From: an uncultured Gammaproteobacteria bacterium
Lineage (GTDB): Bacteria > Patescibacteriota > Microgenomatia > Levybacterales > GWA1-39-11
Length of the DNA stretch: 64,000 nt
Direction of reading: 5' to 3'
Assembly: GCA_964425075.1 (NCBI GenBank)
Contig: CAYRKM010000001.1
Span: forward strand, 266,484-330,483
Each line of letters opens with the position of its first letter. Positions within the stretch are counted from its first letter, which is position 1. This document shows, piece after piece, positions 11,065-53,439 of the stretch. Under the pieces are notes generated by a model. It was not told the origin of the DNA. It made no database searches and was given only the letters and a program-made list of their open reading frames with translations. The position numbers and the translations under genes are program-made.

Positions 11065-11204
11065 CAATGCAGCCTCCGAGGGAAACATCGGAGTGAATAA
11101 CTGGGCTAATTCGGGGAAACCCTGAGACAATTGAAGGGCAATCCCGAGCTAAATTCCGCCAAATGGCGAGATAAATGTGTAGAGACTATATACCCAGGAC
11201 CTAA

Positions 11205-20004: not shown

Positions 20005-20006
20005 CT

Positions 20007-33836: not shown

Positions 33837-34436
33837 TTAGCAAGACTCTGATGAAACACTAGCTGGAGCACAACCAGCTCCATTGCAAGTAGCTGGAATA
33901 ATTGATTGCGGAACATTTGGTGGGGCAAGTCTTAATCCACGCAGCTCAAAGTGAAGATGGGGTCCAGAAACTCTTCCAGTGGCCCCCATGTAGCCAATAA
34001 GTTGCCCCTTTTTAACTTTTGCACCTTCACCAACAAGAATTGCTGACAAGTGGGCATAGTAAGCAAGTGTTGCTCCTACGCTTGTAGGCGAAACTTTTAT
34101 TAAGTTTCCATATCCCCCATCGCATACTCCTTTTCCGTCGCAATCAAACACTTTAGCTGTTCCATCAAGAGTGGAGTAGACTGGGGTTCCTGTGTTGTTT
34201 GCGATATCAACTGATTCTCCCCCTCCCTTTAATTGAATTTCTGCATGGCTGGATGATCCCAGTGGCCCTTGGCTTATGATGCCTGTTGTTGGCCAACAAC
34301 CAGCTGTGCCCGCTGGGGGATTGCCAATTTTTACGTGAATGGTATTGCTGTCTGTTTGATATTTTTGTTGTCCAAAAACAAGACTTACTGAAAAAAACAA
34401 AAACAAAATACCTATGACAATGCTGTATTTTTTCAT
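33837..34436 (-). CDS. M23-family (lysostaphin-like) metallopeptidase, secreted
   Basis: HxxxD and HLHFEL (HxH) zinc-ligand motifs; signal peptide. Confidence 0.75.
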   Translation of the reverse strand: MKKYSIVIGILFLFFSVSLVFGQQKYQTDSNTIHVKIGNPPAGTAGCWPTTGIISQGPLGSSSHAEIQLKGGGESVDIANNTGTPVYSTLDGTAKVFDCDGKGVCDGGYGNLIKVSPTSVGATLAYYAHLSAILVGEGAKVKKGQLIGYMGATGRVSGPHLHFELRGLRLAPPNVPQSIIPATCNGAGCAPASVSSESC

Positions 34437-34915
34437 CTATTACAAAAGCTAAGCTTAAATATTTGACCTGCCTCGTTTGGATTGATACTTGCAGTGGTTG
34501 AGATTTCAACGGGTAGATTGCAAGCCTCATTTTCGCTTATTTCAAGCCTTTCTAAAAATGCTCTTTCGGCCTTTTGCCTGTTCTCTTCAAAAGGCGAGGA
34601 CTTAATGCTAATTAGGAATTTATTAAAAGGCTTAAGGTAAATAAGTCTAAACTCAGAAGCTTCCTCCATCAGTGAGTCTCCTTGTGCGGTTAGCTGAACC
34701 GCAGAAGCGTAGGGGTTTTTGACACTTACCCCTGATACGTCAATTCTCTCACCTGTTGGAATGTTTCTTAGAAAAATTGGTACGAGGGTGGGTGTTGGAA
34801 AAGTTGTTACCTGGGGAGTTTGTCTTGAAAAGCGTGCAAGCATAAGAGACAAAAGAGCAAGTCCAGCAAGGATAGTTAGAATAATAAATAATATTAGTTT
34901 AAGATTTAATTTCAT
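34433..34915 (-). CDS. Membrane-anchored hypothetical protein
   Basis: N-terminal TM; translationally coupled (overlaps) with both neighbours. Confidence 0.4.
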   Translation of the reverse strand: MKLNLKLILFIILTILAGLALLSLMLARFSRQTPQVTTFPTPTLVPIFLRNIPTGERIDVSGVSVKNPYASAVQLTAQGDSLMEEASEFRLIYLKPFNKFLISIKSSPFEENRQKAERAFLERLEISENEACNLPVEISTTASINPNEAGQIFKLSFCNR

Positions 34916-36156
34916 AAAGTATTACTGCACGAAGAAATTATTCTGTTTGCCTCCGACCATGCTCCCCACAATGTCCAATTGGTGCCGTTTTGTGAGAGAG
35001 AAACTGCTTTTTGAATGTTTTGCGTAGTGTCTTTCATTTGTTGAGAGCAGACAAGTCTTTTATTTTCATCAAGCGGATTATCGCATGATTGCGCCCCCCA
35101 TTTCCCTTCGCCATATGCGCCTTCGCAATGCGCCACTAAGTTAATTTGAAAAAGACCGACGCTGTAGTCATTTGTATCACAGTTTGTGTTCATAGCAAAA
35201 GGGTCTCCGCCGCTTTCAAGCTTGCAAATTAAAGACGCTGTTGTCGCCTTAGCCTCATCTCCTCCAAAATATGGAAGCAAGTTATTAACTGAGCAATATC
35301 CCCCAGCTTCGTGTGGTTGCGTGCAAACATTGGAAGAAACCCCATTGCTGCTTAAAAGGGGGCCGGTTGTTCTTGCGCTTACTACATAGTCAAACTCCAC
35401 AGATGGAACAGTTGGGGTGAGGGTAAACTTTATTGTTGGATAATTTTCGCTTGAAGAAAGAGACCACTCAATAACACTTCCCGTCTGAGTGTAGTTGCCG
35501 CTTATTTGCTCAGGTTTTGTGTCCGGTGGAATTATCGCAAAAATTGTAATAGTGTTTCTTGGAATATTCCCAACGCTTTCATCATGAGAGATGGAAACAG
35601 TTATATTAACAGATGAGCCCTCTGGTAGGTTTGGTGGCGGTTCTGAAATTGTAAGCTTTAGTCCGGGAATATCAGGATCGGTTTTTTGGGCACCATTTGC
35701 TGGAGGGTTAGTGGTTGAGTCTTTGTCACTAAATGGGTTAGGAATTGAGGAGCCTCCTCCAAAAAAAAGCATATAAATAATAATAAAAATAAAAACCCCG
35801 AAAAGCGTCCACATCACTCCGGGGTTTACTATATATCTTGCGACATTAATAGCGGTCCGAATATTTTTAATGGTATTGCGAGCCGTTTGAAAATTGTCAA
35901 AAGCAGAGCGTTTTTTCTTTCTATTCTCTTCATTCCCTTCGCCTGAACCGTTTTGAGACGAGTCGGGGTGGCCGCCATGTCTTCCCTCCGGCGCATGACT
36001 CCCTCCAAATCTACCACGGAATTTGTTGATAGATTCCATTGGGTGTCGCGCTGCTTTGCCCAATCTGTATGCGCTATTCGCTCTATCAACTAGGCTACTT
36101 TTGGATTTTTGTTCCTGCTGTGCCTCAGCTTCGTCGTAGTCAACATCGTTTGCCAT
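34912..36156 (-). CDS. Membrane-anchored lytic transglycosylase (SLT/lysozyme-like domain; VirB1-like role inferred)
   Basis: C-terminal KLESGGDPFAMN...YSVGLFQIN matches the SLT ES...GLMQI motif. TM at about residues 95-120. Confidence 0.6.
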   Translation of the reverse strand: MANDVDYDEAEAQQEQKSKSSLVDRANSAYRLGKAARHPMESINKFRGRFGGSHAPEGRHGGHPDSSQNGSGEGNEENRKKKRSAFDNFQTARNTIKNIRTAINVARYIVNPGVMWTLFGVFIFIIIYMLFFGGGSSIPNPFSDKDSTTNPPANGAQKTDPDIPGLKLTISEPPPNLPEGSSVNITVSISHDESVGNIPRNTITIFAIIPPDTKPEQISGNYTQTGSVIEWSLSSSENYPTIKFTLTPTVPSVEFDYVVSARTTGPLLSSNGVSSNVCTQPHEAGGYCSVNNLLPYFGGDEAKATTASLICKLESGGDPFAMNTNCDTNDYSVGLFQINLVAHCEGAYGEGKWGAQSCDNPLDENKRLVCSQQMKDTTQNIQKAVSLSQNGTNWTLWGAWSEANRIISSCSNTL

Positions 36157-36162
36157 AGTCTA

Positions 36163-38283
36163 TTATTTTGATGGTAATGGGTTATTTGGGGCAGGAGCCG
36201 GATTTTTGGGCTTGAAATCAGTCATTTGTGGTTCGGGTGTTGGCTGATCTGTTGGCATAATTGGCTCAGACGGCGCTGGATTTTGTTGGGGCGTAGGCTC
36301 TAGAGCAGCAGGTTGTGGTGCCACCGGAGGCATTTGTGGCGCACTGGGAGATGGGGATGTCATTTGGGGTGCGGGTTGTTCAGGAATTGGGGGAGGGGGT
36401 GGTGGAGCGGAAGCAGTTCTTGCATCGAGTATGTCCTGGGGTTTTGATGTAATTAAGTCATATTCAAATTGAGATGAAACGAATTGTGCGGTTACATGAT
36501 TTTGCCCGGCAAAGAGTAGGCCTTCTCCAACCTGGGCAGTAAGAAGGTATTGCTTTTCTCCTTCTGATAGGTTTAGGGTTTTGGCCAGGGTTTCAACTTC
36601 TGAGGAGCCCTGTTTTAAAAGGATTTGGACTGACGAATTTGAAAGAATTGCTTTTCCGTAATCACTTGACAGAAAATCTTCAATGTCCTGAGTTAGTGTG
36701 GTAACACCAAGATAGTATTTTCGCGCTCTCTTTGCTATTCCCTGAAGGAACGCTGCTGAGTCAGGATAGCGCATCATATACCAGGCCTCATCAACTATTA
36801 AAAGTCTTTTTTTAAGTTTTGTTCTCACTCTATTCCACACAAAATCTAGGATAACGTGCATAGCAATGGGTCGAAGAACGTCCTCGAGTTGTTTTAGGGA
36901 AAAAACTGTAAGCTGGTTTTTAACATCATAATTAGTTTGGTGGTTAAATAGCCCCGAAAATCCTCCTTTTACATATTTTTCAAGTCGGAAAGCTAACTCT
37001 TTTGCTTCTGGCTCCTCCATGTTAAGCAAAGTTTTGTAAAGGTCTTCAAGAATTGGGGGCTCATTTTTATAGGTTGCAGGATCGGGTGTTATGCCTTTTT
37101 GCTTATAGGAAAGCACGATTGCTCTATCAAGCATTGCCTCTTGCGTTGCACTCATTTCTCCAAGCATGGTTTTTAAAAGTCCATGAATTGAAAGTATTTT
37201 GATACCAAGCTGGGCCTCGGTTGCCTCATCAGCAAGAAGGGCAAAGGGATTAATCTTAACTGCAGAATCTTTTGAAAAAGAAATGTATTCTCCGCCTAAG
37301 GATTTGCAAAGTGCGCTATATTCGTCTTCAGGATCAATTATCAAAACCTCAGTGTCAAACATCATTTGGCGCAACACCTCAAGTTTTACCAAAAAAGATT
37401 TTCCAGAACCAGACTTTCCAAACACTACAGAATTCGCATTCTCAAAGGAAAACCTATCAACAATAACAAGGGAATTATTCAAAGTATTGACCCCATATAG
37501 AATTCCTCCCGGCTGCGAAAGCTCATATGAGGTAAATGGAAAAGTTGAGGCAACAGAGGTCGTGTCCATATTTCGAGTTGAAAATAGTTTGTCTGTTCCC
37601 ATTGGAAGAGTGGTTTTAAATCCATCTTCCATCTGAAGAGTGGCGGGTTTTATAACGAGCAAGTTAGAAGCCAAGAGAGACATTAGTTCCTTTGAGCGTA
37701 AATTTAGATCATTAATTTCGTTTGAGGCAAGGGTAATGTATAGTCCAAATTGGAAAAATCTTTCAAGTCCACGCGCGAGCTCCTCTCTTAAGGCTATTGC
37801 GTCCTCTAGTGATGCACGAATTTTAGGATCTGCCTCAATTCCTTGTTTTTCATCAGATTCAATTGTTGCCTCCATCTCGGCAATTTTACGTCTAAGATTG
37901 GATAAAATATCTTTTGACTCAACTGGGTATAAAAACATTGAGATATTCATTGTTTCTTTATAGTCGATGAGAATAGAGAGCCAATTTGGAGAAACCTGGC
38001 GAGGATAGTCCACAACAAAAAAAGTGCGGTAGTATGTGTCTCCAACGCGAATATGTTTAAAATCAACTTCAACAGAGGAAGGGGCAATGATATCAACAAT
38101 TGAGACGGAGCCCTTTTTTAAAGTTTCAAGAGAAGAATTCATGTCAGGTTTTTTTGAAGAAGGTTTTGCCTGTGGTGCTTGGGGTGTTTGGGTGGGCGCA
38201 GTTGCGCTGTCAGGAGGTTGCGTTGGGACAGCTCCAGACCGTGTTGGATTTGGTTGTTCTACCTTTTTTTTCTTTCCAAACAT
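36163..38283 (-). CDS. virB4: VirB4/TrbE/CagE-family type IV secretion ATPase with Pro-rich C-terminal extension
   Basis: Walker A FGKSGSGKSF, Walker B LLIVDEAWYMM, TTLTQDIEDF, family-typical N-domain (VGDTYYRTFFVVDYP). Confidence 0.8.
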   Translation of the reverse strand: MFGKKKKVEQPNPTRSGAVPTQPPDSATAPTQTPQAPQAKPSSKKPDMNSSLETLKKGSVSIVDIIAPSSVEVDFKHIRVGDTYYRTFFVVDYPRQVSPNWLSILIDYKETMNISMFLYPVESKDILSNLRRKIAEMEATIESDEKQGIEADPKIRASLEDAIALREELARGLERFFQFGLYITLASNEINDLNLRSKELMSLLASNLLVIKPATLQMEDGFKTTLPMGTDKLFSTRNMDTTSVASTFPFTSYELSQPGGILYGVNTLNNSLVIVDRFSFENANSVVFGKSGSGKSFLVKLEVLRQMMFDTEVLIIDPEDEYSALCKSLGGEYISFSKDSAVKINPFALLADEATEAQLGIKILSIHGLLKTMLGEMSATQEAMLDRAIVLSYKQKGITPDPATYKNEPPILEDLYKTLLNMEEPEAKELAFRLEKYVKGGFSGLFNHQTNYDVKNQLTVFSLKQLEDVLRPIAMHVILDFVWNRVRTKLKKRLLIVDEAWYMMRYPDSAAFLQGIAKRARKYYLGVTTLTQDIEDFLSSDYGKAILSNSSVQILLKQGSSEVETLAKTLNLSEGEKQYLLTAQVGEGLLFAGQNHVTAQFVSSQFEYDLITSKPQDILDARTASAPPPPPPIPEQPAPQMTSPSPSAPQMPPVAPQPAALEPTPQQNPAPSEPIMPTDQPTPEPQMTDFKPKNPAPAPNNPLPSK

Positions 38284-38289
38284 ATTAAA

Positions 38290-38982
38290 TTAGACAATCA
38301 CATTTTTTATATCTTTTGAATCAAAGTCTATGTTGATGGTGTCATTATTTAATGTTTCGTAATAAAGCTTTATTAATTCTTCATGAGCAAGTGGTCTGGC
38401 GGAAAGGCCCATTCTTTCAATTTGCGTCATTATCATTGCCCTTTTTGTATTTATTCCTTCTTTTGCCTGTTGGGAGAAATAGCTCGTTGAAACATTGGGC
38501 TTTTTCTGATTTTTCGAAGCGTTAATGGCTCCTCCTTCAAGATATGAATAAGGAATTACAACATAGATTTTTTTATCCAACAGGCCTTCATTCTTCACAA
38601 GCTCTTCTATGAATTGACGATACATCCCTAGATGTTCTCTTAATTTTGTGCTTTGCATTGTTGTAAGGCGTTGGTCAAGCGTCTTAAGGTATGACTGCAT
38701 GTCAACGCGTTTTGAGATGATTACAATTTGAATTGAGAAGGAAAGAGAGTTAATCAGAGACATGTATCCATATATTCTTGCGTTTTGCTCTTCGGCCGAA
38801 AGAAGGAAGAAATTAACAGATGAGACTTCTAAGACAGCACAGGCAGTTTTGTTTTTGAAAAAAACTATATCATCCTCAATGTCGAGAATTTCCGTAAAGT
38901 CTTGGGTTGTAGAATGAACTTGTTGTTTTTTTGACATAATATTAGGCTGTAGCTTGTGGTTGAGTGTTTCCAAACAATTCAC
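38290..38982 (-). CDS. Hypothetical protein resembling the N-terminal (non-ATPase) region of VirB4-family proteins
   Basis: IEDDIVFFKNKTACAVLEVSSVNFFLLSAEEQ pattern, like VirB4/TrbE N-termini. Precedes virB4. Confidence 0.35.
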   Translation of the reverse strand: MNCLETLNHKLQPNIMSKKQQVHSTTQDFTEILDIEDDIVFFKNKTACAVLEVSSVNFFLLSAEEQNARIYGYMSLINSLSFSIQIVIISKRVDMQSYLKTLDQRLTTMQSTKLREHLGMYRQFIEELVKNEGLLDKKIYVVIPYSYLEGGAINASKNQKKPNVSTSYFSQQAKEGINTKRAMIMTQIERMGLSARPLAHEELIKLYYETLNNDTINIDFDSKDIKNVIV

Positions 38983-40057
38983 GTCTCAATTTTTCTCGTT
39001 GGTCAGTTGAGAATATTTCGAGTGGCTGGAAAATGCTCCCATCAAGCGTGATGTCAATATTTTCAAACTCATTTTGCTTGCGCTGGTCCTCAAGAACAAC
39101 AGTATAGTCTCCATTTGACAGGGTGGTAGCAGCTCTGAATTGACCTAGGGCGTTAGTTTTAAATGCTCTTACTGGAACGCCTTGCTTATCCATAATTTCA
39201 ACTAAAATATTTGGCAAAACTTTTCCCCTAGGGTCCTTAACTATTCCAAGCACCACATTGGGAGAGTCGGGGAGTTGTGGAAAGCCAGCCTTAAGCTGTG
39301 CTTCTGGTGCAACAGTAGTTGCGTTTTGGGTTTGGTTAGGAGCAGTTGGGGGCGCGGGTTGGGGGATAGGTGGAGGAGTGGGAATAGAAATTGGAGCAGG
39401 TGCGCTCTGTGGTGCTGGGACTACTTCTGGTTGTGCAATTACTGGTGCAGGCTTTGTGATAGTTTCCTCAACCGGTGGGGCTACAGGAGGGCGTACCACC
39501 TGTAAGTTTTCTTGTATGGGTTGCTCGATGGGAGCTGTGGGAGCACTGTCAACCATTTGTCTTGGTGGTGAAGCAGGTTGGGGAGTATCAAAATAAGTAT
39601 TGATGTTGCTTAAGGCAGTTCTCTCCTTCTCGTCAGGAGCATAGCTTCCAGCGCGAAGAGTTTTGTAAAGAAGCGCACGTTTTGACTCTAGGTTCGAGCT
39701 TGACTGAACTGGCTGTGCCACTTGTACGGCTTTTGAGGGAGTAAAGAGTGCTGAAATCAAAAACTCTGCACCCTTTTTTCTATAAATGTATTGATTTTCT
39801 GAAGGAAGGGCTTTTAGAAAATTTTTTATCATTATATCCATTGGTCTTCCCTCAATTGGAATGAAGGCAAGGGAAGCGCCAATTGCCCCGAAAAAAAGAG
39901 CTAAGGGAATTCTAAGTAAACCGTTAAAGGGTAACACATATGTTATAGCTGCAAGAATTCCGCCACCCAATAAATATAAAAATTGCTTTACGGTGACACT
40001 TCCGATAAGTTTGAACTTAAATCCGGTAACATCTTGGGGAATTGGGTGGTTTTCCAT
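38942..40057 (-). CDS. Membrane protein with 2 N-terminal TM helices (VirB3/PrgI-like topology), Pro-rich linker and C-terminal beta domain
   Basis: TM hairpin at residues 25-70. PAPxxP repeats. C-terminal region resembles carboxypeptidase-regulatory/Ig-like folds. Position immediately upstream of VirB4 N-domain ORF. Confidence 0.35.
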   Translation of the reverse strand: MENHPIPQDVTGFKFKLIGSVTVKQFLYLLGGGILAAITYVLPFNGLLRIPLALFFGAIGASLAFIPIEGRPMDIMIKNFLKALPSENQYIYRKKGAEFLISALFTPSKAVQVAQPVQSSSNLESKRALLYKTLRAGSYAPDEKERTALSNINTYFDTPQPASPPRQMVDSAPTAPIEQPIQENLQVVRPPVAPPVEETITKPAPVIAQPEVVPAPQSAPAPISIPTPPPIPQPAPPTAPNQTQNATTVAPEAQLKAGFPQLPDSPNVVLGIVKDPRGKVLPNILVEIMDKQGVPVRAFKTNALGQFRAATTLSNGDYTVVLEDQRKQNEFENIDITLDGSIFQPLEIFSTDQREKLRRELFGNTQPQATA

Positions 40058-40268: not shown

Positions 40269-40601
40269 ATGGAGCCGTTAAAAGACGTGGTATTAAATGA
40301 TGTTGTGGACGCACTTATTTTGGCGTTAGAAAATGGTGTAATAAAAGAAGGAGACATCACTCCTATAGCTGACTATGTTTTGGGAAGAATGGATGATATT
40401 AAGAGTGAAATAGAGATGGATCAATTTCTATCTGAATTATCGACAAAATGGCCAATATTTTCTCATATCACTTCTGGTTTTCAAGCAGAAAATAAGGAGA
40501 AGGCAGACAGTGAGGTTGCCGAGGGTGTTCTAACTCTTGCCCAGCACGGAAAAATTGATGAAGCAATTTCGCTCGCAAAGACAGCAACGCAGACCCAATA
40601 A
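40269..40601 (+). CDS. Small acidic hypothetical protein
   Basis: 110-aa ORF, divergently transcribed from the T4SS-like operon. Confidence 0.35.
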   Translation: MEPLKDVVLNDVVDALILALENGVIKEGDITPIADYVLGRMDDIKSEIEMDQFLSELSTKWPIFSHITSGFQAENKEKADSEVAEGVLTLAQHGKIDEAISLAKTATQTQ

Positions 40602-40604
40602 ATT

Positions 40605-42428
40605 ATGACTGAATTAACTCTTGAAAAAGCACAGATAGAACGTAAGGGAATTCTTGCCCAGGCTGCACTTAAAGAAACTGGCGGAGACGCGGGTGCTGTG
40701 AAAATGCGGGCATTAAAAAGAGAACGGGGACCTGCGGGGGCACTGGACGCATATAGGTCCAATAAGCCAATAGATGAGGTTAGTGGGGCTGAGGCTATTG
40801 AAAAAATGGGATATGAACGCAGGCCTGATGGGACAAAAAATAGAACCGGCGAAGAAAGAGTCAGGTATCAGGAGGCAGCTCAAGCGGCTGGTATTATTGA
40901 GCAGTATTTAAGGGGCGGGATAGAGTCTTTAGGAGATCCCGGAGACAGAGCCGCTATCATGGATGCATTAGATAGGGCGACTCAGCTTTGGCCTGAGACG
41001 TCTGGAATGAATGCTGTGGAGAGAAAGAGATATATAGAAAAAAGAGTGAGAAATAATCAGTTCATGGGGAGGGTAAAAGAGACATACGCGAAGGCTCTGG
41101 AGGCATCTGATAGTTTGGGTGAGGGTGTTGTTGAAGCAGAGAGGGAATTAGTAGCCGCTCAAACAGCAGAAGAAGCTGCGAGAAAAAGATATGATGCCAA
41201 CATCACACAGCAAGGAAAAATAAATGCACAACTTGCATTGTTTGATGTTGACGCATCAGGCACTCCGCGGGCCAAGTTAAAAGAGCTGAACGATTTAATT
41301 ACTGGAAAACCAACAATAGAAAAAAACATATTAGATTGGCGCGGGGAGCTTGATGATTTGGAGTCGGACCTAGAATATTCAAGGAGCGTGCTTAGAGCAG
41401 TATTATCTGGAAGATCAGCTTCTACTACTTCAGGAGCAGACACGGCAGATAAAATACAGCTTGAAATAACAAGTAAAAGGAGAGATATTGCTAAGAAGAA
41501 AGGGGATATCTCAACCGAGGAGGCAAAGTTGGTTAAAATCCAGCAATTAGAGGGAGAAAAGCAAGCCCTTGAGCAGAAAAAGATAGAAGTAGAAGTTGAA
41601 GAGGCCGAGCTTAAATCGGCGCTTGATGCTGCTGTCTATGAACTTACAAGCAAGAGGGCTATATTTGAAGATGCAAAAAATTCCCGCGCAACGCACGAGG
41701 ATCATTTAGTTACCGCACTTAAGAATGTCTGGGTTAATGCTGCATTAGACGATGTTGAGGCAACAATTAGTGAGTGGGAGGGGTTGCGTAGCGATAGGCT
41801 AACTGAATTAAAAGAAAAAATCGGAGATATGGCGGCAAAGAAAATCTTGGACTGCGACAAGAGATGGACTGAGCAAAAACCAGGCTCAACAAAGCCTAAA
41901 GACATAAGAATTAATAAAGCTAAAATTGAGGAAGACTACACAATGTTGTTAAATGAAGGTCCGGAGGCACTAATGAGAAAGATATTAAAATTCTCGGGCG
42001 ATGAGAATGGGATAAGATTATTTACAGACGCGGAGATAGAAAACAAATTGGCCGATCCGGAATTTATTGCGGAGGTGCAAAATGAGCTCATTTCCCAATT
42101 GTTGTTTAGGCGTTTGAATATAGGCAAGAAGCCTACAGAAGCAGAAGTAAGTATTATTGCAACCAGTAAGTGGGGGGAGGGCATGTTCCAAGCAGCAGCA
42201 GCGAAAGACCAGAGAGTAGCTGATGCTATGGCTATAGTTGATAGAAAATATGGTGCAACAACAGGAGAGAAAATAAGAAATCTTGCAAAGGATCCTAAAG
42301 CATATGGCATGCTTGTTGGAATTTTGGCTTTACTACTTGGATCGCCATTCTTACTTGCAGCCGGTGGAGTTGCGGGAAGTGCTTATATGGCACTAGGTGA
42401 AGCGGCAAACGCTCCCTTTATTGGTTAA
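40605..42428 (+). CDS. Large coiled-coil hypothetical protein with C-terminal hydrophobic anchor
   Basis: 607 aa, charged heptad-like stretches, C-terminal GILALLLGSPFLLAAGGVAGSAYMALG. Confidence 0.4.
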   Translation: MTELTLEKAQIERKGILAQAALKETGGDAGAVKMRALKRERGPAGALDAYRSNKPIDEVSGAEAIEKMGYERRPDGTKNRTGEERVRYQEAAQAAGIIEQYLRGGIESLGDPGDRAAIMDALDRATQLWPETSGMNAVERKRYIEKRVRNNQFMGRVKETYAKALEASDSLGEGVVEAERELVAAQTAEEAARKRYDANITQQGKINAQLALFDVDASGTPRAKLKELNDLITGKPTIEKNILDWRGELDDLESDLEYSRSVLRAVLSGRSASTTSGADTADKIQLEITSKRRDIAKKKGDISTEEAKLVKIQQLEGEKQALEQKKIEVEVEEAELKSALDAAVYELTSKRAIFEDAKNSRATHEDHLVTALKNVWVNAALDDVEATISEWEGLRSDRLTELKEKIGDMAAKKILDCDKRWTEQKPGSTKPKDIRINKAKIEEDYTMLLNEGPEALMRKILKFSGDENGIRLFTDAEIENKLADPEFIAEVQNELISQLLFRRLNIGKKPTEAEVSIIATSKWGEGMFQAAAAKDQRVADAMAIVDRKYGATTGEKIRNLAKDPKAYGMLVGILALLLGSPFLLAAGGVAGSAYMALGEAANAPFIG

Positions 42429-42435
42429 CAAAAAG

Positions 42436-42735
42436 CTATAAACTCGGATTGGAAATTTGTTCAACTCCAGTAATTTGTCCAATTACTCTTACAACAAAGA
42501 AAGAGAGGAATATAACGATAAGCCCAATGATAGCGTAGGTTAATGTTTTTTTGGCGCTGTCAATTTCGTTTTGATCCCCTTTTGACGAGATAAATTTAAT
42601 TCCAGAAAAAATAATTAAAATGAGGGCTACAATTCCCGAGAATACGAGTGCTGCGTTAATGATGTTGTTGAGAACTACTGGAATGCAGGCAAGTGTTGCA
42701 ACGCCATTCTTGTCAAGACAGTTACCCCACTGCAT
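42436..42735 (-). CDS. VirB2/TrbC-like pilin paralog 1
   Basis: Signal-like N-terminus with Cys pair, then FISSKGDQNEIDSAKKTLTYAIIGLIVIFLSFF, the conserved (S/T)GGD-x6-A(R/K)...I.G.I..F block shared with the three genes upstream. Confidence 0.5.
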   Translation of the reverse strand: MQWGNCLDKNGVATLACIPVVLNNIINAALVFSGIVALILIIFSGIKFISSKGDQNEIDSAKKTLTYAIIGLIVIFLSFFVVRVIGQITGVEQISNPSL

Positions 42736-42748
42736 ATATTAAATTGAA

Positions 42749-43159
42749 TTAGGCTCCAGGGAATTTGGGAAGAGTTAGGTCAAACAAGTTTAGTCCAAAT
42801 AGACCAAGGATGAGGTTAAGAATAAAGAAGGCAAGGAAGACGATAATAAGCCCAATTATAGCTGCAATGATTTGGTTGCGAGCTGTTTCAACGTTAGCTT
42901 TGTCTCCTCCTGATGTAATCCATTTAATGCCTCCCCAGATAAGGTAGACAAGGGCAACAAGAATCGCAATTATAAAAGCGATAGTGACAATAAATCCAAT
43001 AACAGCACCAAGATCTCGGGTCTTACAAAGGACACTAAGAATTTGAGATGAGTTGTTGCAGGGATTAAGGCTTTCTCCGGGGGTTTGCGCAAAAGATTGA
43101 GCTGCATTCATTAAGAACAAAGGAGTAGAAATAGAAAGAGAGCTTAATAATTTCTTCAT
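42749..43159 (-). CDS. VirB2/TrbC-like pilin paralog 2
   Basis: ITSGGDKANVETARNQIIAAIIGLIIVFLAFF block; N-terminal signal peptide. Confidence 0.5.
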   Translation of the reverse strand: MKKLLSSLSISTPLFLMNAAQSFAQTPGESLNPCNNSSQILSVLCKTRDLGAVIGFIVTIAFIIAILVALVYLIWGGIKWITSGGDKANVETARNQIIAAIIGLIIVFLAFFILNLILGLFGLNLFDLTLPKFPGA

Positions 43160-43210
43160 GTGTTACTAATTGTTATCAATTTTAATAGTGTTTGTCAATA
43201 CCCGTGTGCT

Positions 43211-43555
43211 TTATAAAGAAATGTTTAACAGGTCAATGCCTAAGACTGAGCTAAACAATCCAATTACAAAGAATGAAAGAAAAGCAATGATAAGGCCAAG
43301 AACAGAGAAGATTATGGTTTTTCTAGCACTTTCTACTTTTGTTTTATCCCCTCCTGAAGTAACCCACATAAATCCTCCATACACTATAAAGCCTAAGGCA
43401 ATAAAAACCACTGCTACAAGCAAAAGCATAATAATCCACTCAATAAGTTGTCCTCCGCTGGTTGATAATCCTCCTGTTGGAACACCTTCTGGTGCTTGGA
43501 TTTCTATTGAGCCATTATTTCCGGGAACTGTGAGTTGAGATAATAGTTTTGTCAT
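43211..43555 (-). CDS. VirB2/TrbC-like pilin paralog 3
   Basis: VTSGGDKTKVESARKTIIFSVLGLIIAFLSFF block. Confidence 0.5.
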   Translation of the reverse strand: MTKLLSQLTVPGNNGSIEIQAPEGVPTGGLSTSGGQLIEWIIMLLLVAVVFIALGFIVYGGFMWVTSGGDKTKVESARKTIIFSVLGLIIAFLSFFVIGLFSSVLGIDLLNISL

Positions 43556-45030
43556 TTAGTATTTGTTTGATTGCTCTTTTGTCCGGGTAGCGGATTGTCG
43601 TTAAATCCAGGGATCTTTAGGACGTCTCCTGCTATAACTGATAGTAGCACAAGTGAGAAAATAATAAAAAGCAGTCCAACAATTGCTGAGGTAATTCTTT
43701 CTCTTTGTGCCTGAATTACTTCTTTGTCTCCCCGAGAGAGCAGTAGCCTATATCCTGCATAGAGGATAAGAAGCATTGCCCCAATTGCTGCAAAGCTTAA
43801 TACTATCTGAAAAAGCTTTGTTATAAAGCCGACAGGGTTTAGGGGAATTTTTCCAATCGCAGTGTCAAGCTCATTGCATTTGAGTACACCGGGGTTTGGC
43901 TTACCTTCTTCGCAGGGGATTATGCTTCCTTTTGCCGCTCCTATTTCATCAAGTAAATTCTGTAACTTCTTTGTGTCGCTTCCACCAGGGTCAATTATTT
44001 CTTTACATTCAGGAGTAGCTTTTTTGTCAAAAACGGAACATTCATATTTGAGAAAAGTGTACCCACCACTACAATCGTCTCCAACTGGTTTGTCTTCATT
44101 TACTTGCTCGTTAACTTTTATAACATATCTTCCTGCAATAACGCCTTTCCCATCATCCTCACTATCTTTATATGGAAATTCAACAACGTATTGGTCGGAG
44201 GGCGATGTGAGTCGGAAGTTCTTGTTTTTACTATCGTCTTGGGGCAAGCATCTTTCCTGCATGTATCCGCCTGTTCCCTGCATGACAATTTGAAAGTTAT
44301 TTGCCTTTTGCTTTCCATCTTTAGAAAGACGGTCCTGGTGTAGTTCTACCCTGAATTTTTCAGGAGACTTATTATTGAGTGGGGTGATTTTAACTATGGG
44401 TTCATGATGATTTACAAAAAAGCCTGCTTGACTACGAACAACCCAATTTTCTCCTTGCCTTTCATAAGCAGTTATGTAATAATTTTTCCCTGCCCAAAAC
44501 CAAACCTTGTCTTCAGGGGTGCACTCTTGTTTAAGGTTACTTTCTCCTGCACCACAGACCGTAATAGAGCCGTCAGCATCAAGCTTTGTTAGTTTGCTTC
44601 CAACCACATTATCAGCGGGTAGGTCAATAAACTTTTGAGCTAAGTATCCACCAATTGGGTTGAATCCTCCACCCACTAAAGTTCCAACAGCAAATAGTCC
44701 AACATTTTCAATAATCGAATCTTTTAGGCAATAGTCCCCTCTTAAGCAGACTTGAACCTTGCTTGCATCAACTCCAGGGAAAACAATCTTGACCTTTTTG
44801 ACTGCGTCATCAATACTCTCCAAGCGGTCTGGGTCTTTATAGTCGGGAGGGGAGATAATAGTTGTTGTAAAGCTACTGTCTTCGGAATATTCAGTTGAGA
44901 CATCTCCGAGGTTTTTATCTAGGGGATCGGGTCCAAGTTGTATTTCCTGAGCGAATATAGAGCCAGAATAAACTGAAAGGAATAGTGTGACTATGACAAC
45001 AAAACCAAAAAATCCAAATAATTTTTTCAT
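43552..45030 (-). CDS. Large secreted protein with about 400-aa Cys-rich extracellular domain fused to a C-terminal pilin-like module (candidate pilus tip or adhesin subunit)
   Basis: Signal peptide. Many Cys. C-terminal LSRGDKEVIQAQRERITSAIVGLLFIIFSLV pilin block identical in pattern to the three small paralogs. Confidence 0.45.
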   Translation of the reverse strand: MKKLFGFFGFVVIVTLFLSVYSGSIFAQEIQLGPDPLDKNLGDVSTEYSEDSSFTTTIISPPDYKDPDRLESIDDAVKKVKIVFPGVDASKVQVCLRGDYCLKDSIIENVGLFAVGTLVGGGFNPIGGYLAQKFIDLPADNVVGSKLTKLDADGSITVCGAGESNLKQECTPEDKVWFWAGKNYYITAYERQGENWVVRSQAGFFVNHHEPIVKITPLNNKSPEKFRVELHQDRLSKDGKQKANNFQIVMQGTGGYMQERCLPQDDSKNKNFRLTSPSDQYVVEFPYKDSEDDGKGVIAGRYVIKVNEQVNEDKPVGDDCSGGYTFLKYECSVFDKKATPECKEIIDPGGSDTKKLQNLLDEIGAAKGSIIPCEEGKPNPGVLKCNELDTAIGKIPLNPVGFITKLFQIVLSFAAIGAMLLILYAGYRLLLSRGDKEVIQAQRERITSAIVGLLFIIFSLVLLSVIAGDVLKIPGFNDNPLPGQKSNQTNTK

Positions 45031-45106
45031 ACTATCTTAATCATAACTTAAATTGAGGAAATTGTTAAATTGTCACTTTTTTAGTAATTAGAACTTAGTC
45101 ACTAAG

Positions 45107-45173
45107 CTTACTTTTCGTCAGGAAAGCAAGGGGAGATATTAATCACTCAACTTACTTTTCGTCAGGAAAGCAA
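45107..45173. repeat. Two 23-bp perfect direct repeats CTTACTTTTCGTCAGGAAAGCAA (45107-45129, 45151-45173; about 32 bp with flanking similarity) in the promoter region of the pilin operon
   Basis: Seen directly. 44-bp spacing. Lies between the pilin-fusion gene start (45030) and the winged-helix regulator gene. Confidence 0.7.
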
Positions 45174-45182
45174 AATGAGCGA

Positions 45183-46571
45183 TTAGTCGCTTAATTTATA
45201 TCCTTTTCCTTTTATCGTGTGAATAAAGTGAGGATTGGTAGGGTCTTGTTCTATTTTCTTTCTTAGTCTATAAAAAATCTGATCAAGAGCTTGATCTGTG
45301 ACTCCTTCTTGGGTTTTGTTATCACTCCAAATAGCATTAATTATCTCGTCTTTTGAACAAAGTTTTTCTTTATTTGCAATTAAAAACTTAAGCAGTTTGA
45401 ATTCTGAGGGTGAAAGCTTGTCCGATATTGAGGCATCTCCAACTCGTATATCATTTTTCTCACTGTCATAAGTAAGTTTATCTTTACTTGAAACCGATGT
45501 TGTCTTGATAAATTCTGAAAGTAGGGGAATGGATGGGGCATTATTTTTTATAAGTTCACTATTTGTTAAAAAGGAAGAAGCATTTGTTATCGGTGAATTT
45601 TTTAGTTCAATTTGCTCTGAAGGGAGAAGGGCATTCCAAATTTCAGATAATGCCCCCTGAATGGTTGGTCTTTTCAATAAAAAGTCACGAAGGCTTGAGG
45701 GTGTTTCGTCTTCGCTAATAAGCGCCTCATAAGAGAGCTTGGTGAGTTTTGCATGTCCTCCGGTAAGATTAAGAATTTCCTTTTTTGTATTTTCAGGAAT
45801 TGTTTTATGAGCCGCCTTTTCAATATATGAAAGCCTAAAGTCCATCCCAATAGGGTCAAAAAGAGAGACAAATACGTTGTTCCCCGCGACTATATCATGA
45901 AAGTCGGAAAGCAATTCTGGCTCACATACATCCTCAAGTGGTCGAGTAAGCGCAAATACGCTCCCAAATCTATATTTGGCATGATTTCGAAGGACTCTGA
46001 GGTTAGTAAAAAATTGAGAGTCAATAGTTGGAAGTAAAGAGTCGAATCTATCAAATAGCAAATGGACTGTAAGTTTCTTTTCTATTGATAGGTAATCAAG
46101 GGCTTGTTTTAATGATTGAAATAAAACTAACTCATCCTGCATGCTCACCCCATTTTTCAGAAATTCGTTTACTTTTTTTGATTCATCAATCAGGCGTCTT
46201 TCTCCAAGAGAGAAGGCAAGAGACAGTAGGATAAATTTAGTTATGTCAAAAAGTGGGCGATTTTTAACCTCGGTTGAGTCAATATATACAAAATGCATTA
46301 TTTTTTCGTATTCTCCAAAATGTTTTGCTCTCACATTTAGGTTGTAGGCTAGTAGACGCAGGATATTGCTTTTTCCAACCCCTGGAAGTCCAACGACCTG
46401 AGAAGAAAGACCCTTTCCTATAAAAGGAGCAAGAGCACTAAGCTCCTTTTCGCGCGTTCCTTCAGGATACAAGCTTTCAAAATATTTAAGGGGTTCAAAT
46501 TGCATGGTATCTCCAATATACCACAGTAAAAGGGAGCTGTGAGGTGGTTGTAAGCTAAATATCAAGTTCAA
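45183..46571 (-). CDS. Putative transcriptional regulator: N-terminal P-loop NTPase domain plus C-terminal OmpR/PhoB-type winged-helix DNA-binding domain
   Basis: Walker A GLPGVGKSNILRLL. C-terminal ...KLLKFLIANKEKLCSKDEIINAIWSDNK...ALDQIFYRLRKKIE...IHTIKGKGYKL typical trans_reg_C. Confidence 0.6.
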   Translation of the reverse strand: MNLIFSLQPPHSSLLLWYIGDTMQFEPLKYFESLYPEGTREKELSALAPFIGKGLSSQVVGLPGVGKSNILRLLAYNLNVRAKHFGEYEKIMHFVYIDSTEVKNRPLFDITKFILLSLAFSLGERRLIDESKKVNEFLKNGVSMQDELVLFQSLKQALDYLSIEKKLTVHLLFDRFDSLLPTIDSQFFTNLRVLRNHAKYRFGSVFALTRPLEDVCEPELLSDFHDIVAGNNVFVSLFDPIGMDFRLSYIEKAAHKTIPENTKKEILNLTGGHAKLTKLSYEALISEDETPSSLRDFLLKRPTIQGALSEIWNALLPSEQIELKNSPITNASSFLTNSELIKNNAPSIPLLSEFIKTTSVSSKDKLTYDSEKNDIRVGDASISDKLSPSEFKLLKFLIANKEKLCSKDEIINAIWSDNKTQEGVTDQALDQIFYRLRKKIEQDPTNPHFIHTIKGKGYKLSD

Positions 46572-49500: not shown

Positions 49501-49673
49501 CTGCCAAGGAGGGGTTCTTTACGGAGGAGGATATCAAATGGATGAGAAAAGCAAGTGGAACAGGAAAACTTAGAATGCTTCTAACAGATGTTACCCCAAG
49601 TGTTGGTGTAGGTATAGCGGGAGGATTCTTTAAGGGCCTAAAGGACTTTACAGAGGAGATATTTGACGATTAG
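46599..49673 (+). CDS. Large (about 1000 aa) soluble hypothetical protein, highly charged. True start probably an internal Met near 46733
   Basis: Long uninterrupted ORF with strong coding character; no Walker or other motif recognised. Confidence 0.4.
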   Translation: MVNELTGNIQMPYPGGRTIAGSQNQPHESYRLNEPKGRAVEKRNMDDIVEKDKKTPTVNPEEEKKKTDEILDKERRERLKAKSSKFTREEEEEIRRALEDEREKGRNNLTEKQKSLLEMARAISTGGGASDDYFEHFPAEKFKNPSLKALADNLKSLGQNSQITEEKLQEAVKLVHDMVRASVIQDDEGAEFIEEVSRARTAQATGQPYEPSMETGGAGGQEPPRTGRTAAGGQENRGRNSQEGDGHWSTINVDKFQEDTPIRRIAEQIRQAGFNRASVNQETIRSWANEASAAVQRGEDTEEQERILRDEIQGIMQELQNKESLVNTPKSIQALCRWIIEKEGAQWGPGGVNELIDGENNFKQENFLKWVRERMLFFHGFSPDDELNLLGQIGVETEFRTIGLGTMISNKNQYFRDENRIDPATGRPYIYDEFIEEVVNEVFLFNQSRNYDANYRFTMWSDKDLPGLLSKIHQRSVFTTSDQMKKIFKLSADYTEDEAARDTKVGDSIRMAYEVYYSMSDLEELKEVLGEDSLFFTRKGFEDAYRLSQNKSADEPIPQNYSDLFDSLFDASGKPIPHDRKDENGNNIEGFMSFINLFNETGKLQSTVSLVREAVRLAISERYGLENGLNDSGEARSVRRKNLEYAELWAYSMARWTGAGARNDTGAIGYDAQTKFQRFQEYRLRQARAVRGGAFGNEYDLPVIKDLTLDFFNGIFVEKEVGEARDFTPFEIFKQLDGIDKQIAAVRRNRGDNDLNEAEKGQILQLLQTKEEAYNRFKFKQFTQLDYASNHINRAYQVFEWLTGANEIQIDQIVKHEPFRGLVFDRAKFEEQVKENFIKPIRYAFNTYSNIDYSKKMRVQDRKASREQKRPVYKEVTMAEAMFGPAVLEDFYKKDENGKRVIDEEKLRKDRGLLYKRVIRSILAAHIKSHRERFSGYSKMDWAQMEKFYEALESIREIEIADDEEGLTAKEGFFTEEDIKWMRKASGTGKLRMLLTDVTPSVGVGIAGGFFKGLKDFTEEIFDD

Positions 49674-49696: not shown

Positions 49697-51727
49697 CTAA
49701 CTACTATTATTTCCATCTCTCAAATCCTCAACTGCATCTTGAGCTCCAAGAGCTGCATCTCTTGCCTCATTAGCTGCTACTTCTGTTCGTTGCGCTGCTC
49801 TTCCTGCTTCTGGATTTGCATTGTCTGCGTCATCCGATGGCCCCGTTGCAACCTCTGAACCAGTTGCACCTCCTCCTGAGGGTGCTGGTTCTCTTCCTGC
49901 GGGTGCTGCGCCTGCAGGGTTATTTCCACTGTCTTTTCCCTTATTTCTTCTCAACGGATTTTTTATCCAGGGAATGTGTTCATATCCACCTTTTCCATCG
50001 TTCTTTTCAGGATCCCAACGTTTTGACTTAAAGCTGCCCCCAAATACAGCAGCTGTAAGTCTGCCGCCCCTTTCCTCAGCAATTCTTGTTAACAACTTTG
50101 GATTACCCATTGCGTCCTCACCCCAAACCTTGTTCCAACCACCTTTGATAGGTGAAGTTATGAGTTTTTGACCTGAGCCCAATGCTCTTCCGGCAGCTCC
50201 TGCAATCTTAAGGTCAGGAGCTTTTAGAGCTTGTTTTGTTATATTTACAGCCTCAGGCATGATAAGTATCATTCCAAGTCCAAGTATTGATGCAATAGCC
50301 CCAACTCCATTGTCTCCAGGATCTCCTACAAGAGGGGGGATAAATGTGGCCTGGCCTGGAACCACGTTGTCCTGAACTGCTTTTCCAATTAGGAATAAAA
50401 CAATAACAACAGGAAAGGCTGCAAGATTTGCTGTAACGCTTCTAAGCCAGGGACCAACGCCTCCACCGGCTCCAGGAATAACTCCTTTCAATATCCAAAA
50501 TGGGGCAAAAATAACATCAAGAATGATAAACACATAGGCTTTAATAAGCATGAACCAAACCCGAAGAAGAGCAGAAAGAATTGCGATTGCTATTATAAGG
50601 TAGGCAATAATTAGAGCAATAAGGCCGAAGACTTTGGTCCCAAAAGCATAACCAGCCGCCCCCATTATTGGTCCGAGAATCCAATTTGTGCTAAAACCAG
50701 CTATTTCAGGCGCCATATTTGCAGCAGTCATTCCAGCGATAATACCAGTTACGATTCTTGCTAGCTGTTCTCCAATTCCACCTTCAAAGAGTGATCCTAA
50801 AACGTTTGCTATTCCTTTTGCGGCCGGAGTCGCAATATTATTTATCCCGCCCAATCCCCCGACGGCATTAACTGGATTGGTGTCAATATTTGTAATAGTT
50901 GTAAGACCCTGACTATGGAAGAGTTGGATAACAAGATAAATTGAAACATACATCATGTCAATCAAAAATCCGACGATAGCATAGGAAAACGTGATAAGAA
51001 TGAGGGCAATAACAATTTTTGGAATTTGGTTTTGGATACTCATAACAGTTCTAGCGTCAATATTTATACGAAACATTATTCCCAAACCAAGCAGGATAAA
51101 AACTAAAACAAACAATAAATAAACGAGATTTCTAAAAGTTTCCCAAATTTTAAGAACCGGAGTAAGGCCTTTAAATCCTATTCCTTGCCCAAATCCTGTT
51201 TGTGAAGCTTTTGCAGCATCAAGACATGCTCCCATCGATTCAGGAGGAGTGCCTAGGCATTGCTCGGTTGGGGTTGCGGCATATGAATTACGTGTTATCC
51301 CAAAATTTGATGCGACGTATTTTCCATATTCAACTGAGGAAACAGGTATATTATAGGTAGACCCAATAAGATTTCCGGAAAGAGTTAATAGTCCTCCCGT
51401 GCCATTTTCTACATATCCTACCTTTCTTGTTGTTGGGTCAATTCCAAGACATTTACCATTGGTTGAAAGAGGATCGTATCCTGTTAAAAAGCAAGATGCT
51501 GTTGCTAGGATGTTTATAAATGTAGTTTGAGTATAGGTATTAATATTTTGAGGAACATTTGGATTTGTGTTTAGAGGCAATGACTGAGGGGAGGCAATGT
51601 TTGAAGTTTGAGCTGAAACATTTCCGGTAAAAATAAAAACACCTAAAAAGAAAAAGACAGATAGAAGTGCGATCTTTGCTTTTTGAGAGAATACTTTAGT
51701 TTTCCATTTAGAGCAGTTCATTTTCAT
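49697..51727 (-). CDS. VirB6/TrbL-like polytopic membrane protein with Gly/Ala/Pro-rich C-terminal tail
   Basis: Signal peptide, about 250-aa periplasmic region, then more than 8 TM helices, then GGSFKSKRWD...GAAPAGREPAPSGGGATG tail, an architecture typical of TrbL/VirB6. Assignment by architecture only. Confidence 0.45.
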   Translation of the reverse strand: MKMNCSKWKTKVFSQKAKIALLSVFFFLGVFIFTGNVSAQTSNIASPQSLPLNTNPNVPQNINTYTQTTFINILATASCFLTGYDPLSTNGKCLGIDPTTRKVGYVENGTGGLLTLSGNLIGSTYNIPVSSVEYGKYVASNFGITRNSYAATPTEQCLGTPPESMGACLDAAKASQTGFGQGIGFKGLTPVLKIWETFRNLVYLLFVLVFILLGLGIMFRINIDARTVMSIQNQIPKIVIALILITFSYAIVGFLIDMMYVSIYLVIQLFHSQGLTTITNIDTNPVNAVGGLGGINNIATPAAKGIANVLGSLFEGGIGEQLARIVTGIIAGMTAANMAPEIAGFSTNWILGPIMGAAGYAFGTKVFGLIALIIAYLIIAIAILSALLRVWFMLIKAYVFIILDVIFAPFWILKGVIPGAGGGVGPWLRSVTANLAAFPVVIVLFLIGKAVQDNVVPGQATFIPPLVGDPGDNGVGAIASILGLGMILIMPEAVNITKQALKAPDLKIAGAAGRALGSGQKLITSPIKGGWNKVWGEDAMGNPKLLTRIAEERGGRLTAAVFGGSFKSKRWDPEKNDGKGGYEHIPWIKNPLRRNKGKDSGNNPAGAAPAGREPAPSGGGATGSEVATGPSDDADNANPEAGRAAQRTEVAANEARDAALGAQDAVEDLRDGNNSS

Positions 51728-53228: not shown

Positions 53229-53239
53229 AAAAACATTTT

Positions 53240-53287
53240 ATGGCACTAACTGGAATTAGAGAAAAAGTTTTCATTTCCGAAAATTAA
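53240..53287 (+). repeat. Upstream copy 1 of nrdJ start (ATGGCACTAACTGGAATTAGAGAAAAAGTTTT) forming mini-ORF MALTGIREKVFISEN*
   Basis: 31/33 nt identical to the true nrdJ start at 53440. Followed by a diverged tail and stop. Confidence 0.7.
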
Positions 53288-53345
53288 TTTGAGGAAACAA
53301 AAAGGAAGTATAGAAAGTTATTAATGGAGGTTAAATTTTAAAAAT

Positions 53346-53393
53346 ATGACATTAACTGGAATTAGAGAAAAAGTTTTTATTTTCGAGAAGTAA
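53346..53393 (+). repeat. Upstream copy 2 of nrdJ start forming mini-ORF MTLTGIREKVFIFEK*
   Basis: 33-nt perfect identity with nrdJ start. GGAGG located 18 nt upstream. Confidence 0.7.
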
Positions 53394-53439
53394 CTCGAGA
53401 AAACAAAATTTTTATTCGAAGAAAAAAACAAACTACTTT

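Follow-up and report, generated by a model that had tools for sequence, protein, structure and literature searches.

A row of mutually dissimilar, pilin-like genes beside a type IV secretion system (T4SS) raises the question whether the products are interchangeable variants of one pilin, differentiated parts of one structure, or membrane hairpins unrelated to secretion. We address this question for a 64,000-nucleotide stretch of DNA (the window; GenBank assembly GCA_964425075.1, contig CAYRKM010000001.1, positions 266,484 to 330,483), in which four consecutive minus-strand open reading frames (ORFs) of 492, 114, 136 and 99 residues occur, with coordinates that match those of an initial annotation exactly. 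Judged by sequence comparison, the four genes are anciently diverged, non-redundant orthologous classes in a fixed order, here called a, b, c and d. The best explanation, which we hold with moderate confidence, is that an a-b-c-d operon encodes subunits of the T4SS_pilin family that would form a heteromeric pilus or conduit, class a being the part that makes contact with a host.

The four proteins share one module. Its conserved block, S-x-G-D-x6-[A/Q]-[R/K] followed five residues on by [A/S][I/V]xGL[I/L][I/V/F], lies between two hydrophobic helices, and hydropathy and alignment place the second motif at the opening of the second helix. The initial annotation had described such a block in the three small ORFs and at the C-terminus of the large one, and it is indeed found in all four, with mutual identity as low as 24–33%. 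A hidden Markov model (HMM) of the module, run against all six-frame ORFs of at least 40 residues in the window, returned these four proteins (E = 5e-33 to 8e-45) and no other ORF, though several other membrane proteins are encoded there. Because the model finds the four alone, the block is specific, neither a chance likeness nor a generic one. By predicted topology, each of the four products is a two-helix membrane hairpin with a short connecting loop rich in lysine and arginine, residues that are more frequent in the loop than in the tails. Cysteine pairs sit in the N-terminal segments, and some relatives carry a PG_binding_1 domain after the second transmembrane helix (TM2). Signal peptides and topology were called heuristically, from Kyte-Doolittle hydropathy and sequence patterns.

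Divergence among the four is concentrated N-terminal to the module, as had been proposed and as the alignments bear out. Class c (136 residues; 42749..43159, minus strand) has a signal peptide and a cysteine pair, C34/C45. Class b (114 residues; 43211..43555, minus strand) has neither leader nor cysteine and a conserved N-terminus, ...IQAPxGVPTGG. Class d (99 residues; 42436..42735, minus strand) has no leader, and its cysteine pair C6/C17 stands in the motif W..C..GVATLxC with the first transmembrane helix (TM1) immediately after. The claim of a signal peptide and a cysteine pair in every protein hence fails for two of the four, the 114- and the 99-residue protein. Since the orthologues likewise lack leader and cysteines in class b and the leader in class d, these absences are class features and not mis-called starts.

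Four other Levybacteria genomes contain the same four genes in the same order, and over the five genomes mean identity is 58% within a class versus 31% between classes. When class HMMs were applied to 80 non-redundant related loci, the order a-b-c(+)-d emerged in 47, and most of the others are partial, as expected where a short contig ends inside the array. Duplication is confined to class c, which is present two to four times in nine of the 47 canonical loci; in L011 and L012, the copies are 76–77% identical in nucleotides. Each class has its own signature across the relatives: class a a leader, an ectodomain, a cysteine loop and a module ending IL.IPGF; class b no leader, usually no cysteine and the N-terminus ...I..P.GIP.GG; class c a leader, C.P.G.....C and a very conserved GGIKWITSGGDK loop; class d W..C...GVATL.CIP at the extreme N-terminus. 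The term paralogs, as used in the initial annotation, suggests recent duplication, in place of which we find four old classes with one-to-one orthologues. Altogether, the earlier observation is confirmed in part.

Class a (492 residues; 43552..45030, minus strand) consists of a signal peptide, an ectodomain and the C-terminal module, the latter matching PF18895 with E = 1.8e-5 at residues 401–466. The signal-peptide-like leader, residues 1–27 (44950..45030, minus strand), begins with MKK, continues with a hydrophobic core (hydropathy segment 4–22) and ends in SIFA-Q with a putative cleavage site between A and Q; the pattern M-K-K, hydrophobic region, A-Q is kept in 25 homologues. The ectodomain, residues 28–372 (43915..44949, minus strand), comprises a disordered linker and then β-rich, FN3-like sandwiches, with conserved cysteines C95, C101, C159, C170, C261 and C320. 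The pilin module, residues 373–477 (43600..43914, minus strand), is built of a cysteine loop C373–C385, TM1, a SRGDKEVIQAQR loop, TM2 and the conserved tail LKIPGF. Ten cysteines make up 2.0% of the protein and 2.7% of its ectodomain versus 0.5% in 20 other long ORFs of the window; seven of them are invariant in the 25 homologues and an eighth is present in at least 90%. This agrees with the proposal of secreted, cysteine-rich sequence in front of the module, about 345 residues being exported behind the predicted leader.

A frameshift fusion of two genes had been named as what could undo the interpretation of the large ORF, and the check came out negative. The 25 full-length homologues are colinear with class a at 31–55% identity, and the identical 492-residue protein is encoded on the NCBI contig and on an independent Logan contig. 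Queried exhaustively with the ectodomain by itself (phmmer), 1.84 billion representative proteins yielded 68 relatives, 67 of which have the module at their C-terminus (the lone exception is 293 residues long). Given the colinear homologues and this nearly complete linkage, a frameshift fusion is excluded, and class a reads as a true, obligate fusion of signal peptide, disulfide-rich FN3-like ectodomain and hairpin.

The two parts of this fusion have evolved differently. Mean pairwise identity within the class a family is 66% in the transmembrane hairpin and 32.5% in the ectodomain. In the Levybacteria loci L011 and L012, the first array gene again encodes a pilin of about 400 residues, the last 96–135 of which align to class a by hhalign, with a module 40–47% identical including LKIPGF; the remainder of these ectodomains is unalignable to class a, even with hhalign. 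Furthermore, 66 class a ectodomains fall into 29 blastp clusters with no BLAST similarity detectable between clusters. These comparisons show a conserved class a hairpin whose ectodomain was many times exchanged for another or changed past recognition. The closest class a homologue is 55–57% identical in protein, so that synonymous sites are saturated.

A single-sequence AlphaFold2 model of the 492-residue protein was unusable (predicted local distance difference test, pLDDT, 39.7) and was superseded by a model based on the 25-sequence alignment (mean pLDDT 72). The latter predicts the leader and a disordered linker (21–55), a mixed domain, β-sandwiches at about 180–346, a helix, a short cysteine-bracketed hairpin and a long helical hairpin (399–431 / 436–470). 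Together with tandem FN3-like fold matches, it suggests that the ectodomain consists of tandem FN3-like β-sandwiches with conserved cysteines.

As a source of ectodomain variation, we considered a diversity-generating retroelement, suggested by PF05635 genes (23S rRNA-intervening-sequence or Avd-like four-helix bundle) in or beside the arrays of L011 (9737–10096), L012 (5496–5858) and L005 (16399–16773). This candidate was rejected: the three loci contain neither a template/variable repeat pair nor a reverse transcriptase, and the repeats found are the class c duplicates. As a separate observation, the class a tail (..ILKIPGF, 43552–43600) resembles the conserved N-terminus of class b (..LLS-L-K/T-IPG.., 43520–43555), which may be due to chance, to a motif that both share for processing or recognition, or to an old read-through that left a trace.

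Are the hairpins pilins? PF18895 (T4SS_pilin) has a cut-off of 26.6 bits, which the 136-residue (42.8 bits) and 99-residue (42.4 bits) proteins exceed; the 492-residue (25.1 bits) and 114-residue (19.8 bits, E = 8.6e-4) proteins stay just below. All 19 orthologues tested match the family (best E = 9e-12). PF18895 matches, some weak, are on record for the positional orthologues of the 492- and 114-residue proteins, and the long first-gene pilins of other arrays exceed the cut-off at 28–38 bits. The family trait of two hydrophobic helices with a short charged loop is seen both in the hydropathy segments and in the predicted hairpin of the AlphaFold2 model. A second curated family, NF045849 (the Mbov_0395 family of Mycoplasma integrative and conjugative elements, ICEs), matches the four window proteins with 24.7–32.4 bits (E = 5e-8 to 1e-5; 5.3e-8 for class d and 2.4e-6 for class b) and all 19 orthologues with a best E of 4.4e-11, the next family matching four of the 19 at 2.6e-4. 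The four remain under the curated equivalog cut-off of 40 bits and are as such related to this family but not members of it.

Similarity to canonical T4SS pilins was not detected. The best window score against PF04956 (TrbC/VirB2) is 16.2 bits with a cut-off of 27.9, and five of the 19 family members match it at E = 0.0016 or worse, which is the level of unrelated two-helix families; indeed, individual members weakly match several such two-TM families (DUF350, PsiE, TrbC and others) at E = 1e-2 to 1e-4. In hhalign, the 19 modules found no match to five plasmid-derived VirB2/TrbC sequences, both profiles being shallow. Run against the whole set of PDB sequences with E as high as 10 allowed, the module profile retrieved rhodopsins alone, which are spurious. 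The pCF10 proteins PrgD–PrgM gave no match either, including PrgF, a 75-residue two-helix hairpin that scores about 1–5 bits with the module and class HMMs. The type IV prepilin class III leader, G[FM]-[ST]-[LT]-[LIVP]-E with cleavage after G, and the sortase signal LPxTG are absent from all four proteins; lacking these defining motifs, the proteins belong neither with the type IV nor with the sortase-assembled pilins.

The comparison to VirB2/TrbC and Gram-positive T4SS proteins, proposed in the initial annotation, hence yields no similarity, while membership in a T4SS-associated pilin family and a T4SS gene cluster stands, through the PF18895 matches and the VirB4 and PrgI neighbors. The module is not the generic hairpin that had been feared, to go by its own HMM, PF18895 and NF045849, and the interpretation as a whole is supported in part. 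The label pilin rests on two curated T4SS-associated families, topology, gene context and the structure-based annotation of others. With no sequence similarity detectable, the last three are also what a homology to real conjugative pilins depends on.

Gene context places the array in a secretion system. Downstream of it, on the same strand, follow PrgI, a TraC-like protein, VirB4, SLT_3 and M23 enzymes and then dnaN (at 31714) and dnaA (at 30246), the last two beyond the SLT_3/M23 end of the cluster. The VirB3-like membrane protein PrgI (38942..40057, minus strand; PF12666 with 27.7 bits, and PF13620) is syntenic. The VirB4-like ATPase (36163..38283, minus strand) matches P-loop_TraG (E = 4.2e-35), AAA_10 and DUF87 and is 80–85% identical to its relatives. 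Between these two lies a 230-residue protein (38290..38982, minus strand) with no significant Pfam match of its own, whose orthologues at 62–72% identity carry PF26593 (TraC-like). Cell-wall hydrolases complete the cluster (33837..36156, minus strand): a lysozyme-like SLT_3 protein (34912–36156), a 160-residue membrane protein and an M23 peptidase (33837–34436). Such arrays were delimited in PMC12102498 by at least two pilin genes, in tandem or with a single non-pilin gene between them, no more than 20 genes away from virB4 and further MPF_FATA-type components; the present array, with four consecutive pilin genes, agrees with this on each point. No relaxase or coupling protein turned up in Pfam scans of about 45 long ORFs of the window, in which MOBscan and CONJScan profiles were not included.

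Composition and gene content indicate chromosomal DNA of a small-genome bacterium, with a G+C content of about 38% and the housekeeping genes dnaA, dnaN, dnaG, rpoD, nrdR, class II ribonucleotide reductase and tmRNA. NCBI has no names on record for the four window proteins, but homologues of the 492-residue protein are annotated 'pilin [Candidatus Levybacteria bacterium]', and a scan of species-representative genomes found matches almost exclusively in Levybacteria/Levyibacteriota and a few other Microgenomatia. Identity and context taken together make it very probable that the locus is part of a chromosomal, origin-proximal T4SS of a Levybacteria-type (Microgenomatia) bacterium. Many metagenome-assembled genome records with T4SS/pilin loci of this type (among L013–L091) are titled 'uncultured Gammaproteobacteria' or 'Pseudomonadales', one Limisphaerales and one Spirochaetia, labels that are probably placeholders or mis-assigned taxonomy.

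Within the array the genes are tightly spaced. The start of class b overlaps the stop of class a in ATGA (a gap of -4), and gaps of 51 and 13 nucleotides follow. A promoter-like site (TTAACA, 17 nucleotides, TATGAT; 45040..45068, minus strand), a match to consensus only, ends 9 nucleotides before the class a start. These spacings, with the promoter-like site directly before class a, argue that the four genes form an operon a-b-c-d, probably transcribed from that site. In 17 of 60 related loci the -10-like hexamer ends 6 nucleotides before the class a start, compared with the 9 in the window; its position suggests a leaderless or very-short-leader mRNA for the first gene of the operon.

How might an array of this kind work? 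We propose that the hairpins would be oriented in the membrane with the two termini on its outer side and the loop on its inner side, because the loop is rich in lysine and arginine, the cysteine pairs are exported and a peptidoglycan-binding domain follows TM2 in relatives. The adjacent VirB4/PrgI machinery would extract the hairpins from the membrane, and these would build a short pilus or conduit, heteromeric in composition, that crosses the wall. The bulk subunit would be class c, the sole amplified class, or class d, and classes a and b would be low-copy subunits, whose overlapping genes suggest translational coupling. Displayed at the surface or tip, the variable class a ectodomain would contact the host cell and take the role that VirB5 or separate adhesins have in other T4SSs. 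A tip or minor pilin carrying an adhesin, as the initial annotation had it, would fit both the FN3-like fold and the replacement of ectodomains on a conserved module. Pilus formation and the adhesin role are what we infer, and the pilus-plus-adhesin mechanism is accordingly tentative, a proposal we find plausible while stopping just short of believing it. Doubtful, at the present state, is its widest form: that a heteromeric VirB2-like pilus of four dedicated classes exists in Levybacteria, perhaps in Microgenomatia generally, and would be the first T4SS pilus of a monoderm; that the coupled a-b pair primes or caps it; that the exchangeable class a ectodomain sets host docking in place of VirB5- or PrgB-type adhesins; and that pilin-like subunits are native to the MPF_FATA lineage.

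Several points weigh against the proposed pilus. No filament of a PF18895 protein has been observed in any organism, and a pilus has been called a possibility only (PMC12857230). Similarity to canonical VirB2/TrbC or to any PDB sequence is undetectable with the profiles used, and the signal-peptide and topology assignments are heuristic ones. The FN3-like fold is generic and does not alone mean adhesion, and a 370-residue domain would be hard to fit on the subunit of a helical filament if that subunit is abundant.

The alternative that survives best takes the four hairpins to be membrane parts, in fixed stoichiometry, of the channel in a monoderm T4SS, in the manner of VirB3 or of the small essential membrane proteins that Gram-positive systems have, with the class a ectodomain as a wall-spanning strut or anchor. 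Four one-to-one classes in invariant order are what one complex would lead us to expect, known monoderm T4SSs work without pili (PMC12102498, PMC12857230), and both the peptidoglycan-binding domain that follows the module in some relatives and the missing likeness to polymerising VirB2 pilins suit such a role. A strut, however, should be conserved, yet 29 dissimilar ectodomain clusters are found on a conserved anchor, and the amplification of class c is better suited to a bulk or variable subunit. We therefore regard such a fixed membrane complex as unlikely, though to be taken seriously.

Improbable, in our estimate, is that the four are interchangeable variants of a major pilin kept for antigenic or host-range variation, as has been proposed for the VirB2 paralogs of Bartonella Trw and Anaplasma and suggested for Patescibacteria arrays (PMC12102498). 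Their mutual identity does lie near the mean of 25% reported for such arrays (PMC12102498), and lineage-specific duplications of class c have occurred; yet every one of the four is matched in distant genomes by an orthologue of its own, and leaders, cysteine patterns and tails are class-specific, from which it follows that the genes are differentiated and not interchangeable. Amplification is only ever seen in one class, and the one-to-one orthology contradicts the idea of variants, except perhaps for class c. That the hairpin is generic and unrelated to secretion, or the 492-residue ORF an artefact, could draw on the weak matches to many unrelated two-TM families but is effectively refuted by two independently curated T4SS families matching all members far above noise, the absence of any other membrane ORF of the window among the module HMM matches, the conserved VirB4/PrgI synteny, the fusion in nearly all ectodomain relatives and the identical protein on the Logan contig.

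The heteromeric pilus or conduit that we favor is best set against the arrays already described. Quinonero-Coronel et al. (2025) reported 441 arrays, each of 2–11 VirB2-like pilins and situated near virB4 and dnaA, which abound in Microgenomatia and Saccharimonadia (PMC12102498); the kind of locus is hence already known. The present array shares with them tandem small PF18895 hairpins beside prgI/virB4 and near dnaA/dnaN, low identity between paralogs, and an origin in the Microgenomatia, a class named as array-rich; no relaxase or coupling protein was seen nearby in the Pfam scans. It differs in that four fixed orthologous classes in conserved order replace a variable number of pilins whose variation is discussed, and in that the first member is an ectodomain fusion of 400–500 residues, of which we found no mention in the published array descriptions searched. 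Bartonella Trw and the Anaplasma T4SS likewise have several VirB2-type genes in a row in the T4SS locus of a host-dependent bacterium, but those are lineage-specific amplifications thought to serve surface variation, unlike the old classes found here, of which class c alone is amplified.

With VirB2, TrbC and TraA of diderms (PF04956 and relatives), the four proteins have in common small size, two hydrophobic helices with a short basic loop, a cleavable leader in some members, and genes beside VirB3/VirB4 homologues. They differ from these by the absence of significant sequence or profile similarity, the monoderm organism, the absence of VirB5 and the missing leader in two of the four. We know of no VirB2 with a 370-residue N-terminal ectodomain. 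The likeness to the Mbov_0395 / MMCAP2_0565 proteins of Mycoplasma ICEs (NF045849) spans nearly the whole 80-residue profile and also concerns a monoderm T4SS; in contrast, the Mycoplasma proteins are encoded on mobile conjugative elements, and the scores of the four window proteins stay below 40 bits. This match bears on the origin of the pilin component, which may be native to the monoderm lineage, and sits uneasily with the published statement that MPF_FATA systems lack VirB2-like pilin genes (PMC12102498).

Two further comparisons are looser. GspH-I-J-K of the type II secretion system, minor pilins of type IV pili with PilY1-type adhesins, and VirB5 tips may serve as functional analogues: a fixed, differentiated, low-copy set in which one member bears a large extra distal domain would resemble such tip complexes, from which the present proteins differ by unrelated folds and assembly machines and by the absent type IV prepilin motif. 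Pam pili are, like the putative structure here, a surface filament restricted to the Candidate Phyla Radiation (CPR) with Ig/FN3-like domains and paired cysteines, and include the membrane-anchored two-FN3 protein PamR (bioRxiv 10.64898/2026.03.03.709456). They are assembled by donor-strand exchange with chaperone-like proteins and encoded in an operon by ATP synthase genes, with neither a PF18895 hairpin nor T4SS context; a relation to them was set aside on this description, as operon and assembly principle differ.

The surroundings of the array contain further genes and signals. Upstream, an AAA+-like NTPase fused to an OmpR-type winged-helix DNA-binding domain (45183..46571, minus strand; Trans_reg_C, E = 5.9e-20) is encoded, and a regulator of this type at 56–65% identity also stands directly upstream of the array in four related loci (L002, L004, L005, L006). 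Between its gene and the promoter-like site lies a tandem direct repeat of 2 x 44 nucleotides (45090..45177), 82% identical, with two exact 23-nucleotide cores CTTACTTTTCGTCAGGAAAGCAA where none are expected by chance. This repeat, a possible binding site, has no further copy in the window and no conserved counterpart in relatives; as it is unique to the present genome, we rejected it as a conserved operator upstream of class a. The ACAATTTAACA motif was rejected likewise, being present a single time in the window and not conserved.

Between the array and prgI, a two-gene block encoding proteins of 110 and 607 residues (40269..42428, plus strand) is inverted relative to four related genomes. 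In L002, L004 and L006, the product of the gene next after class d, which shares its strand, is a match to the 110-residue protein, and equivalents of the two genes are found on the same strand after class d in L002, L004, L005 and L006, which suggests an inversion of about 2.2 kb here; the stop of the 607-residue gene is 7 nucleotides from that of class d, and no convincing inverted repeats flank the block. The PrgI/VirB3-like protein (38942–40057, minus strand) has an extra Pro/Ala/Gln-rich linker and a CarboxypepD_reg-like β-sandwich domain, an architecture kept in relatives. A 676-residue polytopic membrane protein (49697..51727, minus strand) with a leader, a 4-Cys ectodomain and about six TM helices is syntenic with the cluster and, by topology, a candidate for the 'missing' VirB6 of Microgenomatia. 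Also syntenic is a soluble 1024-residue protein (46599–49673, plus strand) without significant Pfam match. Neither the 676-residue protein nor other uncharacterised neighbors match Pfam at E up to 1. Identity to all relatives examined is 46–58% for the 676-residue and 27–46% for the 1024-residue protein.

Other features of the window lie apart from the array. A full-length Rfam group I intron match (11050–11260, plus strand; 63.3 bits) is located between ORFs of about 247 residues (10324–11064 and 11346–12092). Polysaccharide-processing functions are represented in this reduced genome by a secreted GH16 glycosidase that carries a Big_7 domain and by two adjacent genes of the sulfatase family (12305–13579, 18562–21395). 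Downstream of nrdR, three copies of a 64-nucleotide repeat (53239–53502; 86% and 70% identity to the reference copy) occur, the third of which extends across the start of the ribonucleotide reductase gene (53440); the 5' end of this gene thus appears to have been duplicated twice upstream.

In summary, beyond the literature that we found, the comparison adds the four-class architecture, the obligate, hypervariable ectodomain fusion at position one, and a significant link to a Mycoplasma ICE family; these are refinements rather than surprises. Wang et al. (2023) showed that the pilin series is essential to S. epibionticum (PMC10633639; also PMC12857230), and the function of T4SS and pilin series in this single genetically tested Patescibacterium has been called completely unknown (PMC11665869, PMC12857230), with a pilus in these monoderms described as an 'intriguing possibility' in a 2025 FEMS review. 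MPF_FATA systems are stated to lack VirB2-like pilins (PMC12102498); on the widest reading given above, the significant NF045849 similarity would mean that pilin-like subunits were already present in the monoderm (MPF_FATA) lineage and not borrowed from diderms. The conserved class a module ending LKIPGF can serve as a marker by which candidate domains for host recognition are collected from the genomes of uncultivated CPR bacteria. For the Microgenomatia, a second major class, the 'array' resolves to four differentiated subunits in fixed order, a testable parts list that makes it possible to ask which subunit forms the bulk, which caps, and whether the ectodomain sets host specificity.

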